Shown here: piece after piece, positions 1,600 through 64,000 of the stretch
Layout: every line of letters begins with the position of its first letter
Numbering within the stretch: the first letter of the stretch is position 1
Origin: Malacoraja senta
Taxonomy: Eukaryota
NCBI GenBank assembly: GCA_038087875.1
Contig: CM075992.1
Span: 6,946,001-7,010,000, forward strand
DNA length: 64,000 bases
Direction: 5' to 3'
Notes under the pieces: model-generated
What the model saw: the letters and a program-made list of their open reading frames with translations, nothing else
Database searches by the model: none
What the model was told of the DNA's origin: nothing
Made by a program: the position numbers and the translations under genes

Positions 1600-1890
1600 C
1601 TTTCAGTCTGAAGAAGGGTTCCAACCTGAAAGGTCACCCTTCCATAGAGAGACACAACCAGCTGGAGTAACTCAGCAAGTCAGGCAGCATCTCTGGAGAA
1701 AAGGAATTGGCGACGTTTCGGGACAAGACCCTTCTTCGGACTGAGAGTCAGAGGAGAGGGAAACGAGATATATGAAAAGGTACGTGGAGCAAATGAATGA
1801 AAGGTATGTAAAAGGACAAATCAATGTCAGCACCTATCCATATTCTCCAGAGATGCTGCCTGACCCGTTGAGTTCCTCCAGCATTTTATG
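1600..1890. mobile_element. Cluster of Penelope-derived short elements in both orientations, with degenerate hammerhead motifs
   Basis: CTGAAGAAGGG at 1608, GCTGGAGTAACTCAGC...GACGTTTCGGG at about 1660-1745, reverse copy at about 1845-1890. Confidence 0.7.
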
Positions 1891-2050
1891 TAAGAAGGCG
1901 TGGCTGGAGGGCGATCCTAAAAACACGGCGATGCTAACAAGCTGTATCAACAAAGTGTGTAGACCTTCAGAAATGCACACTCCCTGAAGCACACACATAC
2001 TGGCTTCGAAACAAAATACCCGCCACACACACAGATCTCCGAGTGTGTGG

Positions 2051-2715
2051 CACACAGACATACACACTCACACACACATACACACTCACACACACATACA
2101 CACTCACTCACACATACACACTCACACATACACACTCACTCACACATACACACTCACACACACATACACTCACACACACACATACACACTCACACACACA
2201 CACACACACACACACACATATACACTCACACACACACACACACATACACACACACACACACACACACATACACACTCACACACACACACACACACACTCA
2301 CACACACACACACACTCACACACACACACACACACTCACACACACATACACACTCACACACACACATACACACACACACATACACACACACACATACACA
2401 CTCACACACACATACACACTCACACACACATACACTCACTCACACATGCACACATTCTCACACACATTCTCACACACATACACACTCACACACACAGACA
2501 CACACTCACACACACACAAACTCACACGCACGCACACACACACACAAACGTACGCTCACTCACACATGCACACACACACATGCACACCCACTCACTCCCA
2601 CACAGACACACACTCACACATGCATGCATGCACACACACTCACACACACTCTCACACACACTCACTCTCTCTCACACACACACACACACAACACACTATC
2701 TCACACACACACACC
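2051..2715. repeat. Degenerate (CA)n microsatellite with CATA/CTCA interruptions
   Basis: Direct reading; source of the spurious HT/CV ORFs. Confidence 0.95.
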
Positions 2716-4386
2716 TAAGAAATAAAAGTTCCCGCAAATCAGCATCCTCAGAACACAGACGTGAAGCGGTGAAGAACTAGTCACAGGGAGCCTCGTTGAA
2801 AAGCTCCGGTCCACAGAAGCACAAAAGCCATCCCCAAGAAACACAATTCCTTTGAAATGTAGGAGGAGAGGAACGCAGGCGCTTGGTAATGTGTACACAA
2901 CGTCAGACGTGATGCCTCGCAAACACAGACCCTCCACGGCATCTCAGTCACATCTCTGTTCAACCTTAACCAGGCTTCGAGTCTAACAGCCGCCCACTCC
3001 CCGCCTCTCTGTGTGGGCAGCTGACAACCCAGCCGTATGAATATTGACTTCTCTAATTTCAAGTAACCCTAGCTTTCCCTCTCCCCCATCCCTCCCCCAT
3101 CCTAATTATCCGACCAGTCTGACCGTCCCCGTTTAAATTCTCGCCTCGTTGTCTCAATGAATTTTCCTTGAGCCTCATCCCCTTTGATAACCCGCTTTCA
3201 CACCTTACCCTTCCTTATCTCTGTGTCTCCCTCTCTCCCCTGACTCTCAGTCTGGTCTCGACCCGAAACGTCACCCATTCCTTCGCTCCAGGGAGGCTGC
3301 CTGGCCCGCTGAGTTACTCCAGCACTTTGTGTGTCTAACTCTCTGGATATAAACACTTCTTCCACACACACACTGCAGCCCCAGAGGGAAGTGGATGCTG
3401 CCTGTGGTTCACAGTGCAATAAATCAACGAAGAACGAGGAAAGCGCTGCTCATTACCTTGTTTCTGCAGAAGCTCGTCCTCTCTGGATGATTAATGGGAC
3501 CCAGACAATCTCAGATTATGTCTTTGTGTCAGACCTCTCCGAACTCTGACTCACGCCTTTGGAGAGCCTGACTCACATTTGCTTGAAACCACACCAGAGA
3601 GGAAAAGTATTCCAAGATAGACACAAAATGCTGGAGTAACTCAGCGGGACCGGGCAGCATCTCTGGAGAGAAGGGATGGGTGACGTTTCTGGCTCGAGGC
3701 CCTTCTTCAGACTGAGAGGCAGGGGAGAGGGAGACACAGAGATATAGGTATGAAAACCAGACATCAAAGGGTTCAGAGCTCAAGGAGCTCATTGTAGAAT
3801 AGATCACTGTGAGATTGGGGAAGGTGACAACTCATTTATTTACCTCTTCCCGATGTTTAGACGGGCACATGGATATGCAGGGAGAGGAGGGCAGAGAGCA
3901 GTCCTGAACTACTTTCTCCTTATTGGTGACCCTCGGACTATCTTTGATCAGACTTTACCTTGCACTAAACGTTATTCCCTTATCATGTATCTGTACACTG
4001 TGAAACTGTGCACTGTAAAAACAGAGAACGCTGGAATTACTCAGCAGGTCAATCATCTTTGGAAAGGAAAATAGTGATAAGGTTTCACTATAATGAAACT
4101 CAGAAGTATCAGAAAATTTCTGAGATTTCTCCATTTCTGATGAAAGAAATGTAAAAATGTTTTAATTAATGTCAACGGATGGTGAATATTGGCTGCGGTG
4201 TTTTTCCAGGCCCTTGGGATATGTTGCTGAGGGGGTGTTTCAGATATGTGCTCCAGAGAGGGAATTAAAACATAGAACTGAGAGGCACAAGAACAGGCCC
4301 TTCGGCCCACAATGTCTGTGCCGAACATGATGTCAAGACCCTCACTTGCTACCTGTACATGACCCATATCCTGGAAGGCATGTGCC

Positions 4387-4682
4387 TGGCGCAGCGGTAG
4401 AGCTACTGCCTCACAGCGCCAGAGACCCGGGTTCAATCCTGACTGCAGGTGCTGTCAGTACGGAATTTGTACCTTCTCCCCGTGACCTGCGTGGGTTTGC
4501 TCCGAGATCTTTGGTTTCTTCCAACCCTCTAAAGACGGACAGGTTTGTCGGTTAATTGTCTTGGTATAAAATGGAAAATTGTCCCTAGTGTGTAGGGTAG
4601 TGCTAATGTGCGGGGATCGCTGGTCGGTGCGGACTCGGTGGGCCGAAGGGCCTGTTTCCGCGCTGTATTTCTAAATCTAAAA
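4387..4682 (+). mobile_element. tRNA-derived SINE (HE1/V-SINE-like), near full length
   Basis: TGGCGCAGCGG A-box, GGTTCAATCC B-box, conserved core, GGGCCGAAGGGCCTGTTTCC tail. Confidence 0.9.
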
Positions 4683-5034
4683 TATCCCTCTGTTCTTTAC
4701 ATATCCATATGCTTATCCAACAATCTTTGAAATGCCACTATCGTATCTGCTTCAACTACGACCCACAGCAGTGTGTTCCAGATACCCACCACCCTCTGTG
4801 TAAAAACATTGTGCCCCGCCAGACCACCTTAAATTGTGCCCCTCTCATCTTTACACTACTGTATGCCCCACGGTATTTGGTTTTTCCCTCCTGGGTATAA
4901 AGGTTCTGACTGTCTACCCCATCTATGCCCCTCATAATTTTATATGCTTCTATCGGAAATTGGTGTCCTGCTTAAAGTCTCACCAGAGCAAAATGTGTCT
5001 CCAGCATCACGGCACTCTCTCCACGAGGCTCTGA

Positions 5035-61600: not shown

Positions 61601-62090
61601 CTAAAGGAGATCGGAGAGTGAAAAATAAAATGAAAGAAATATCAAACGATTTGTTTTAGAAAACAAACACGGGGACAACAAAGGCAATTCCTGTGAACTC
61701 CGGGGAGAGTTTTGCCCAAATGCAGCACGATTGTTCAAACTGACATCTAAAACCAATCTAAAATTCAGGGCAGGTTTGAAAACAAAAGTGAAGTCTTTTC
61801 TCCCAGCCCTGGGTGGGGTGGTTGGGATTGCTCGGGCTCTGTTCTTTGGCCACTACTTCTATTTCCATCACCGTTGGGTTCAGTTATTCCGGCTGACCCT
61901 GCTTCCCAACGACTTCCGAGCATTCAGTTGGGAATATCGATCACGTCCCCGTCTGTCGGGGGAGGACGAGGAGTCTAAATTCCGTCCAAAAACACTTTTT
62001 CTTGTTGCAAAACTTCCCTCTGCATCCTCTCTTTCTCTCTCTCTAAATTATATCCAGAAAGAACATTCATTCCCCAACCAGTCCACTCAC

Positions 62091-62560
62091 GGCGTTTAAA
62101 CTCCAAACAGATCGGCGAGCCACTTTAGACAAACAGTTTAATGTTTGGGGAACTAGCCGACTGCTATTTCTAAAGATACGTCCCGAGATTTTGACTGTAA
62201 ACATCCCAAGTTCACTCAAAACATCAAAGGCACAACTGTTTAATATCAACAACGCATCTTAAAGTTATTGCAAAGCTCTGGATAAATTCACGTATCAATT
62301 TGCTTCGAAACAAACGGTACTTTTAAAACTTCCACGACTTACATTAAAAGTTGACTCCCCAGCGCCGCAGTCAAATCCTCCTCCTGCTCCGACTTGAACG
62401 ATTCGTATTGCAAGCGGCCAATGCCGAGATGGCTTAGGGACTCTCTCTAAATTGCCTCATCTGGAACAAACGCACGACGTAGCCTTTCAGGATCCACAGC
62501 AACCAATGCACACGCCTTTTCCAGAGCTCCAAATCCCGGCCCCGTTTTAAATAGAGCTTT
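62091..62560 (-). promoter_or_regulatory. Candidate promoter and first exon in a repeat-free, CpG-enriched island
   Basis: About 1 kb without repeats (61610-62620). Minus donor GCC|GTGAGT at 62091/62090. CCAAT at about 62418 and 62503, TCF/LEF-type ACATCAAAG at 62221, FOX-type TGTAAACA at 62196. Confidence 0.35.
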
Positions 62561-62778
62561 CTGTCCAAAAGTAAACATTCAAGGAAGTAAACAATTTCAT
62601 TTTAGATTATGTCATGGGATCATAGGGAGATGGAGTACACAAACAAGCCCTTGCCAATTGCATTATTTATATTTACGCCTACATAAATCCTATTTTTAAA
62701 ATTATCTCAGCAACTCCCCCTAGATTCTACCTTACACACATGGGCAGTTTATAGCAGTCAATTCGTTTAGTATTAAAG

Positions 62779-62812
62779 GGTCTGAAGAAGGGCCTTGACC
62801 TGAAACGTCACT
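62779..62812 (+). ncRNA. Hammerhead ribozyme motif (variant stem II)
   Basis: GGT-CTGAAGA-AGGGCCTTGACCT-GAAAC-GTC-ACT. Confidence 0.55.
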
Positions 62813-64000
62813 TATTCTCTTTCTCCCAGACATGTTGCCTGATCCGCTGATTTACTCCAGCAATTTGTGTCTATCTTTAGTTTACTTTTGGTTCAAGTTT
62901 AGTTTATTGTCACATGTACCGAGGCACAGTGAAAAGCTTCTTTGCTGCATGCTAATTAGTCAGCGGAAAGACTGTACATGATCACCGCCCATAGTGCACA
63001 GATACAGGATAAAGGGAATAAAGTGTAGTGCAAGGTAAAGTTTGATTAAAGATATAGCCCGAGGGTCTCCATTGAGGTAGATAGTAGTTCAGGACTGCTC
63101 TCTAGTTGTTGGAAGGATGGTTCAGTGGCCTGATAACACCCGAATCTTATATGTTTTAATAAGATCCCCTCTGAATTAAAAAAGAAACTGTCCATGAATC
63201 TGGAGGTGTGCGTTTTCACACTTCGGTACCTCTTGCCTGATGGCAGTGGGGAGAAGAGGGGGTGTCCGGGTGAGATATGTCCTTGATTATCGACCCTTCA
63301 TTAACCAATCAACCTGCACATCTTTAGGTCGCGGGAGGAAATCGGAGCAACCAGGGGAAATCTGAATGTCACATTGAGAAAGCAAGAAGTCCACACAGAC
63401 AGCACTGGAGATCAGGATGGAACCTGGGTCATCATTGGTGGGACTGTGGCTCTACATACTGCGCTGCTGAGGCATTACCATGTGGAATCACATAGGCCAG
63501 CATGATATTTTTGCCCGTCAAGTCCATGCTAGCTTTTTGAAAGATGCAGTTATACCACTATCCTGTCCTTTCTTGCAGGTCCATTTTTTCTCTTTCCAAT
63601 GCACATCTAGTTTGATGATCCCTTCTTCTCCTGGTTTTTGTCTTTCCATGTGTTGTTCACACCGTTTCTCAGCTACCAAAGGGGCCAACACATTTCAAGT
63701 TATTGTCATTTGATCTAGAAGCCAGCCGATAGGTTTGTGCTTCCCACTTGGAAATGCGTGACACTCCATGTTGGGTCAGTAGTCCACTGGTTGGAATGTT
63801 CATCCATGTTCAGAATTCTTTCCATGAAGGACGTTGGTTTCACCTGCAGGAAGGTTGTTGTGCAAGGATATAGTCATAGAATCACACACCATGGAAACAG
63901 GCCCTTCGTCCAACTTGCGAGATCTGGGTGTCCTTGTTCATCCGTCAGTGAAAGTAAGCATGCAGGTACAGCAGGCAGTGAAGAAAGCTTCACAGGCATG

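Follow-up and report, generated by a model that had tools for sequence, protein, structure and literature searches.

Minimal hammerhead ribozyme motifs are carried by the pseudo-long terminal repeats (pLTRs) of Penelope-like elements (PLEs), and their massive occurrence there as solitary or opposite-strand motifs has already been published (PMC4209133). For PLEs that bear an endonuclease, a tail, truncation and inverted partner copies are likewise on record (PMC8557442, PMC11167929), and the idea of non-autonomous, hammerhead-bearing PLE derivatives is set out in PMC7229834 and in the preprint 10.64898/2026.07.22.740005. In this work, we focus on a short repeat of this kind in a stretch of 64,000 nt from Malacoraja senta (assembly GCA_038087875.1, contig CM075992.1, positions 6,946,001 to 7,010,000 of the forward strand), hereafter called the window; coordinates given without a locus label are counted from its first letter. 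The hammerheads of PLEs are known but unexplained, and to our knowledge a role for the element has been shown by nobody. The evidence supports the identification of the repeat as the hammerhead-bearing pLTR of a young PLE. On balance, these units appear to have been inserted mostly singly, by the reverse transcriptase (RT) and endonuclease of the element, from unit-length RNAs starting at TCAGTC. They constitute an unusually large and partly very young fossil record, with about 45,000 intact motifs and with autonomous copies that are 99% identical.

In most of their features, the units resemble the minimal type I hammerheads of metazoan PLEs (PMC4209133): both contain the CUGANGA and GAAA boxes, an unpaired A between positions 9 and 10.1 and the G10.1-C11.1 pair, lack helix III, possess a palindromic ACGU, lie in a terminal repeat after an open reading frame (ORF) for RT and GIY-YIG endonuclease, are mostly solitary or paired on opposite strands, and fall into several sequence families per genome. 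Differences from the same report are a helix I of 2 bp here as against 4–5 bp in the consensus (2 bp in Drosophila virilis), a copy number much above the 4,000 of the coelacanth and the 9,000 of Xenopus, and a common 5′ end of the element that here lies directly at the core. Endonuclease-bearing PLEs (PMC8557442, PMC11167929) resemble the units in having two 3′ ends separated by 36 nt, tails that also occur inverted on the 5′ side, truncation at the 5′ end, partners arranged head to head and incomplete tandems; at the hammerhead cut site, neither insertion ends nor reads are seen. The start codon of the Anolis element PAc is overlapped by the hammerhead (PMC11167929), whereas the hammerhead of the present units precedes the ORF start by about 165 nt and occupies the very 5′ edge of the unit; the mechanism proposed below, unlike that of PAc, is drawn solely from DNA fossils. 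Animal non-LTR retrozymes (PMC7229834; preprint by Li et al., 2026) are likewise short and non-coding, carry a hammerhead, show a relationship to PLE pLTRs and are presumably moved by PLE proteins. They form tandem arrays, carry canonical type I hammerheads and yield abundant circular RNAs, whereas the units here are dispersed singletons and inverted pairs with a minimal core and gave no sign of circles. Schistosomes have Sm-alpha and Sj-alpha elements, which are again non-autonomous retroposons of small size and very high abundance that bear a hammerhead; in these, a promoter of their own precedes a canonical hammerhead (PMC6765202), whereas the present units have no tRNA-like head and a minimal hammerhead. 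Hammerhead-bearing PLE end-pieces as such are ordinary for fish-like genomes. The literature searches made gave no description of this family in cartilaginous fish; preprint 10.64898/2026.07.22.740005 sampled one chondrichthyan, and its supplements may bear on the matter. Particular to the present case are the abundance, the youth of the autonomous family, the common 5′ end at the core and a clean negative result at the cut site.

The motif is far more frequent in the window than chance allows. The pattern CTGAAGA-N(4-30)-GAAAC matched at 11 sites (3685, 6538, 7900, 14363, 22417 and 52098 on the minus strand; 23457, 35309, 46904, 54946 and 62782 on the plus strand), where 0.46 were expected, and at least 11 were reached in 0 of 100 shuffles. 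The seven motif places named in a sequence-only reading of the window were all recovered by this search, with offsets of a few bases as expected from strand and motif start, and the two stem II versions that it had described, GGGTCTCGACCC and GGGTTTCGGCCC, are present. Five of its example sites (6538, 14363, 22417, 52098 and 54946) proved intact, but the one at 7894 reads GAAACATT, and the one at 62779 belongs to a short-form solo unit (62779..62884, plus strand) which keeps the boxes and has a degraded stem II (GGGCCTTGACCT). For a complete census, 8 window copies were aligned into a profile hidden Markov model (HMM), iterated once on the window plus a 600-kb sample and searched with nhmmer. 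The resulting model of 137 positions runs, from 5′ to 3′, through TCAGT, CTGAAGA, an unpaired A, the stem II hairpin GGGTCTCGACCC, GAAACGTC, some 65 conserved nt and an optional tail of 36 nt. The unit measures 100–137 bp and has a short form and a long form with tail. The profile found 56 pieces between 1603 and 62884, 29 on the minus and 27 on the plus strand, which make up 8.2% of the window. Because ten pairs of these pieces are head-to-head inverted pairs, they correspond to about 46 insertion events. The earlier estimate of 25–30 copies at one per 2–3 kb was therefore too low, the measured density being about one per 1.1 kb.

The repeat is not special to the window, but genome-wide. In an unbiased sample of the 1.94-Gb assembly (60 segments of 10 kb each, taken at fixed coordinates from the 21 largest contigs regardless of the repeat), the profile found 255 pieces, giving 311 in the 664 kb of sample and window together. 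One unit thus accounts for about 4% (4.1%) of the sampled DNA, which is of consequence for annotation. Extrapolation suggests about 0.8 million pieces in the genome, or about 0.7 million insertions after allowing for pairs. Pattern searches of the whole genome gave 18,728 exact copies for a single 28-mer of the core and 45,154 matches for a degenerate pattern requiring every core feature, the reversed control giving 0 in both cases.

The sequence-only reading had also tied the repeat to GIY-YIG coding sequence, and this link is real. On the minus strand, 22563..22817 encodes the C-terminal 85 codons of a PLE ORF, including the GIY-YIG motif (IYIGETKRRLGDRFAEHLRSV), with 96% protein identity to residues 459-543 of a 543-aa ORF at L031:7817-9445. 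It is followed by a pyrimidine-rich 3′ untranslated region (UTR) that extends from the ORF stop to the unit and terminates in TATCAGT (22447..22562), and by the pLTR of this 5′-truncated young copy (22314..22446), with an intact core at 22417-22441 (GGGTTTCGGCCC, cut triplet GTT). An older copy on the plus strand retains the final ~30 codons (7452..7538, 69% identity to residues 511-539 of the L031 ORF), its 3′ UTR and a unit at 7660..7765 whose core has decayed (GGATTTTGGCCCAAAATGTT). Pfam matched no domain in the two window remnants, so that their assignment to GIY-YIG was made through tblastn and the longer L031 ORF, which itself has a weak GIY-YIG match (E 5.7e-4, under the Pfam cut-off). 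The L031 ORF has 1109 relatives at E<=1e-5, the best named being uncharacterised proteins of whale shark, stingray, bamboo shark, zebra shark and devil ray, and its full-length relatives of about 800-930 aa carry RVT_1 and GIY-YIG in precomputed annotation.

The unit lies about 120 nt after the ORF, across the pyrimidine-rich 3′ UTR, at both window remnants and in 12 of 12 fetched young copies, which bears out the earlier proposal that the repeat is a hammerhead-bearing PLE terminus. The family is young: of 3064 candidate matches to 751 nt of the L031 ORF, 40 were scored, and every one of these is 99–100% identical. The 12 fetched young ORF copies are all 5′-truncated, each at a different point. 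In a tandem at locus L066, an ORF end, the 3′ UTR and a unit with tail (1030-1162) are followed, after 36 nt, by the next ORF start. PLE ORF remnants occur at just 14 loci in the 664 kb, the N-terminal half being present in none, as compared with 311 unit pieces; the view that most copies are short stand-alone insertions was thus well founded. As a side observation, about 1.1 kb at L066:1770-2876 and L072:1803-2824 separates protein matches to residues 1-199 and 179-902 of a full-length relative, with a ~70-nt internal duplication at L066 2258-2541; this spacer may be an intron or an expanded repeat inside the ORF.

The manner of insertion is recorded most clearly at the 5′ ends. The 5′ edge of the model is reached by 168 of the 311 pieces, whereas the other 143 begin inside the unit, where their starts are evenly spread. 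Of the copies extending to the hammerhead, about half have their start no more than 5 nt from a common point, the initiator-like TCAGTC just 5′ of CUGAAGA. The density of 5′ ends at this edge is about 13 times that inside the unit (143 over ~130 positions); ends number ~1.1 per nt inside the unit, as against ~0.18 per nt in the sequence immediately preceding it. Upstream of the 168 edge-reaching pieces, the flank is unrelated to any other flank in 85, adjoins an inverted unit in 46 (in 10 of these, the junction falls exactly on the C of CTGAAGA, one base lying between), has 44 nt or more in common with other copies in 30, where PLE 3′ UTR or ORF extends for 44 to >300 nt, and is a partial direct tandem in 7. 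Information content in the 85 copies with unrelated flanks declines with distance from the core, from 1.10 bits at -1 (T) through 0.81 (-2, G) and 0.50 (-3, A) to 0.14 (-4), and is about 0 by -5. Target-site duplications of 8–14 nt were found in 13 of these 85, as against 1.2 expected from shuffled flank pairs (at least 8 nt). Examples of solo units with unrelated 5′ flanks in the window are 6435..6565 (minus strand, long form with its tail at 6435-6470 and an intact minimal core at 6538-6562), 12517..12650 (plus strand, long form, core decayed to CTGGAGA) and 58438..58569 (plus strand, long form, core decayed to CTGAGGA..GAAACATC). A 5′-truncated unit on the minus strand at 21852..21927, read from the sequence, lies within a repeat resembling the tail of a long interspersed nuclear element (LINE) and shows a 9-bp duplication, AAGATTGTT, at both sides.

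Together, the sharp 5′ end and the duplications indicate discrete insertions of ~100 or ~137 nt, among which short, unit-length insertions dominate. This bears directly on whether the copies are just randomly 5′-truncated, dead-on-arrival copies of the autonomous element, as was assumed for solitary PLE hammerheads in 2014 (PMC4209133). Random truncation would account for the young ORF copies, truncated at differing points in 12 of 12 cases, for the 143 pieces truncated inside the unit and for the 30 that reach a variable 44 to >300 nt upstream. It does not predict the 13-fold concentration of 5′ ends in the 5 nt around a single site, the drop in end density just upstream of the unit or head-to-head pairs joined at that same site, and we consider it quite unlikely as the general origin of the copies.

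Under the favoured reading, insertion from unit-length RNAs, the common 5′ point would mark where the template RNA begins, in the simplest case because transcription initiates within the unit. The TCAGT before the core is kept across at least five subfamilies whose UTRs otherwise differ. Initiators have the consensus YYANWYY, TCAGTY in flies, to which TCAGTCT conforms. A downstream promoter element (DPE) at +28 was considered and dropped, the ACGT of the core being 3 nt off the spacing usually given for a DPE. The Penelope element of D. virilis is transcribed from an internal initiator/DPE promoter in its pLTR (PMC2377424). This precedent, the common 5′ end and the conserved TCAGT together suggest that the edge corresponds to the 5′ end of a short template RNA. 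The pyrimidine tract and CAG directly before the core (22447-22480 on the minus strand and other upstream flanks) also resemble a 3′ splice site, and the intron of the D. virilis element ends at helix I (PMC4209133). A splice-acceptor origin of the edge was ruled out because the G of CAG is kept in 64 of the 85 solo copies and the A in 54.

As for other kinds of promoter, a tRNA-like head is absent: ARAGORN gave no match in the window, and Rfam at E<=10 gave no tRNA, 7SL or 5S there. With regard to the earlier comparison with short interspersed nuclear elements (SINEs), the units thus have the defined 5′ end and the 3′ end in common with an autonomous partner, but not the RNA polymerase III head. 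More tentatively, the unit could be a self-transcribed mini-retroposon, in which the initiator at the edge would fire in any solo copy, RT would enter at one of two internal 3′ sites, and the core, located at +4, would never make the 5′ end of the template. If so, the several hundred thousand fossil insertions in this one genome would render the role of the PLE hammerhead directly testable, and they would show that retrotransposition does not rely on the motif as a processing ribozyme.

The 3′ ends of the units fall into two groups. The model end coordinate is bimodal among the 311 pieces, with 135 ending at positions 96-113, 123 at 129-136 and the other 53 elsewhere, which places the two ends 36 nt apart. 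In the young ORF copies, 10 of 12 end at the short 3′ end (5266-5268 in L066 coordinates) and 2 include the tail. RNA contigs assembled from four runs diverge at the same two ends, although such contigs cannot show starts, ends or levels of RNAs. An optional tail of 30–40 nt is described for PLEs, and in PAc it lies between two internal RT start sites (PMC8557442, PMC11167929). The 36-nt spacing matches both, and we regard it as a signature of the PLE tail; the two 3′ ends would accordingly represent two internal RT start sites, as shown for PAc.

Inverted pairs prevail among neighbouring units: 65 adjacent pairs among the 311 pieces comprise 48 head-to-head, 4 tail-to-tail and 13 direct, mostly partial, arrangements. 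Such pairs may arise from priming on both strands of the cut DNA. One of those in the window is at 54828..55061, where a minus arm (54828-54941, from model position 19) meets a complete plus arm (54942-55061) with an intact core at 54946-54970. Profile matches define further pairs at 7213..7394, 53230..53438, 56114..56322 and 56805..56983, as well as at 7946..8084 (arms 5′-truncated), 23646..23851 (tail on both arms) and 46820..47027 (5′ edge reached by both arms). Two others, 9965..10107 and 61320..61462, have plus arms consisting of the 3′ end and tail only (10064-10107, model positions 93-136, and 61419-61462), which stand at the 5′ side of their units. Inverted unit pairs at 7682-7907, 56172-56293, 23680-23817 and 53289-53407 gave sub-threshold matches to plant microRNA-precursor families of Rfam (best 86.6 bits against a gathering score of 230), and it is likely that such pairs yield false microRNA candidates in automatic annotation.

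The sequence-only reading had treated the units as an independent mobile family. A lineage consisting of solo units only was not seen, since all three major subfamilies hold solo, inverted and ORF- or UTR-linked members, and that part of the reading is not supported. The long copies complicate the picture. From 40 scored matches among 1391 candidates, 20 copies with a junction of unit tail and ORF start were fetched. In twelve of them, the sequence upstream of the unit passes without a break into the 3′ UTR or ORF of another, partial copy (6 extend beyond the fetched 480 nt, and 6 stop 23-347 nt upstream); in 2, an inverted unit is encountered at the edge or close to it, and the remaining 6 break off within the unit. 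A start at the edge next to unrelated sequence is found in none of the 20. Long copies thus usually exceed one unit length, which points to a tandem read-through RNA as template or to a template switch of RT at the edge. Direct repeats of the first 39–46 nt of the unit, from the edge to just past the cut site, stand before a fuller unit at L007:2774-2948, L039:1001-1133 and L015:480-650; these partial repeats would fit an RT jumping to a second template after reaching the 5′ end of an RNA.

Several of these observations weigh against insertion from unit-length RNAs. The long copies run on upstream in 12 of 20 cases, and not one of them begins at the edge beside unrelated sequence; the subfamilies are common to solo and ORF-linked units, so that self-propagation of solo units is not established; the 143 internal starts are what ordinary 5′ truncation would give; and the flank classes are approximate, as shown by unit 7660-7765, which was scored as unique despite its link to an ORF. 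Because long copies rarely end at the unit edge, one further explanation deserves consideration, namely that the short copies are by-products of full-length RNAs on which RT starts in the 3′ pLTR, switches by homology to the identical 5′ pLTR of the same or another RNA and runs off the 5′ end, so that solo units would arise although none of them is transcribed. The upstream partial copies joined seamlessly at the edge, the L066 tandem, the partial direct repeats and the shared subfamilies all speak for it. It requires, however, full-length RNAs with their 5′ end at the edge, for which the 20 long copies offer no counterpart, and as solo copies exceed ORF-bearing copies by more than 20 to 1, template switching would have to be the rule and not the exception. 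We therefore regard the by-product explanation as unlikely, and continue to favour unit-length template RNAs.

The hammerhead motif itself is complete in a minority of copies. When both boxes, the extra nucleotide before stem II, the G10.1-C11.1 pair, a 4-bp stem II with a tetraloop and C or U at the cut position are all required, 5 of the 30 motif-spanning pieces in the window (56 pieces in total) and 26 of 167 spanning copies overall are intact, as are 10 of 12 young ORF-linked units. Two of the intact cores in the window lie in long-form solo units on the minus strand, at 14259..14387 (core 14363-14387) and 51995..52123 (core 52098-52122). Helix III is lacking; GAAACGU(C/U) holds a self-complementary ACGU, which is kept in 83 of the 167 spanning copies and lost mostly by CpG decay. 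Helix I has 2 bp, since pairing of ..TCAGU with ACCCAUU or GCCUAUU gives U-A (or U.G) and G-C, followed by two mismatches; its 5′ strand UCAGU is invariant, whereas the 3′ strand differs between subfamilies without compensation. Covariation in stem II, which had been described as keeping its pairing between subfamilies, finds no support here: the two versions differ by a change from U-A to U.G, on one side only, plus a loop change, and double changes (11, 6, 4, 1 and 9 against 7.1, 3.0, 3.4, 5.0 and 11.1 expected) are not in excess, dead copies being a poor test of constraint. For the same reason uninformative as a test, a comparison among copies revealed no excess conservation of the core, which is 0.88–0.96 identical, like other non-CpG blocks. 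The minimum free energy (MFE) fold is an interrupted hairpin of 11 bp formed by UGAAGAAGGGU with ACCCAUUCCUUCG just past the cut site, which buries the core (e.g. 54943-54990), and the A-to-G and C-to-U changes between subfamilies keep this hairpin paired by wobble. In the window, Rfam matched no hammerhead family either at the gathering score or at E<=10, as expected for a motif without helix III; its matches were only microRNA-like ones from inverted unit pairs.

Cleavage has left no mark on the insertion ends. No peak of 5′ ends is found at the cut site among the 311 pieces: position 35 of the model, the first base after the cut, is the start of 3 and positions 33-37 together are that of 9, no different from the positions nearby. 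Among the long copies, L082 and L084 begin 3–4 nt upstream of the cut and not at it. This agrees with the results for PAc, where ribozyme mutants were without effect on insertion in vitro and no reads ended at the cut site (PMC11167929). Minimal PLE hammerheads are also reported to cleave poorly even as dimers (PMC4209133). A retrozyme-like origin, with units cut from longer RNAs by paired hammerheads, circularised and copied from the circle, would draw on the cores that are complete in 26 spanning copies and 10 young pLTRs, on the ACGU palindrome, which would allow dimers, and on the presumed dependence of retrozymes on PLEs (PMC7229834 and bioRxiv 10.64898/2026.07.22.740005). The 311 pieces include no tandem arrays and the window no full direct dimer, the direct neighbours number 13 and are mostly partial, permuted junctions were not seen among the pieces, and, in addition to the missing cut-site peak, helix I has 2 bp and the MFE fold is a competing hairpin. 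A retrozyme-like origin, as the sequence-only reading had suggested, is thus highly improbable.

The evidence for ribozyme function is weak, and the hammerhead is most likely a passenger in these copies, or acts at a step that leaves no trace in the DNA, as the insertion record shows no sign of cleaved RNA serving as template. The further proposal that the units place many self-cleavage motifs in pre-mRNA appears weakly founded, given that 5 of the 56 window pieces are intact, that helix I is short, that the MFE fold is not a hammerhead and that no ends accumulate at the cut. The insertion ends point instead to a fixed RNA 5′ end beside the ribozyme core, to two entry sites of RT and to no use of ribozyme-cut RNA. 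This pattern agrees with the in vitro work on the Anolis element, and the species is suited to questions on both the promoter and the ribozyme.

Several other repeats accompany the units in the window. The LINE-tail-like repeat mentioned above, which encodes ..LEFRRMRGDLIETYKI..FFSQRVVSLWNSLP.., is very abundant and extends over 21579-22007 on the minus strand, split by the unit at 21852-21927. It recurs in the opposite orientation at 22100-22307 (plus strand), where it adjoins the PLE copy at 22314, and again after a unit at 53431-53649. An assembly gap of 200 N at 37312-37511 directly follows a unit at 37186-37312, which is consistent with such repeats breaking assemblies. Long microsatellite tracts rich in (CA/TG)n occupy 1940-2780 and 24200-26900, the latter producing, over 4 kb, skews of 0.55 (AT) and -0.47 (GC), as well as long artefactual open frames. 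Finally, open frames of a retroelement other than the PLE are common to 59295-60027 (minus strand) of the window and to L038:6749-7649 (minus strand) of the sample.

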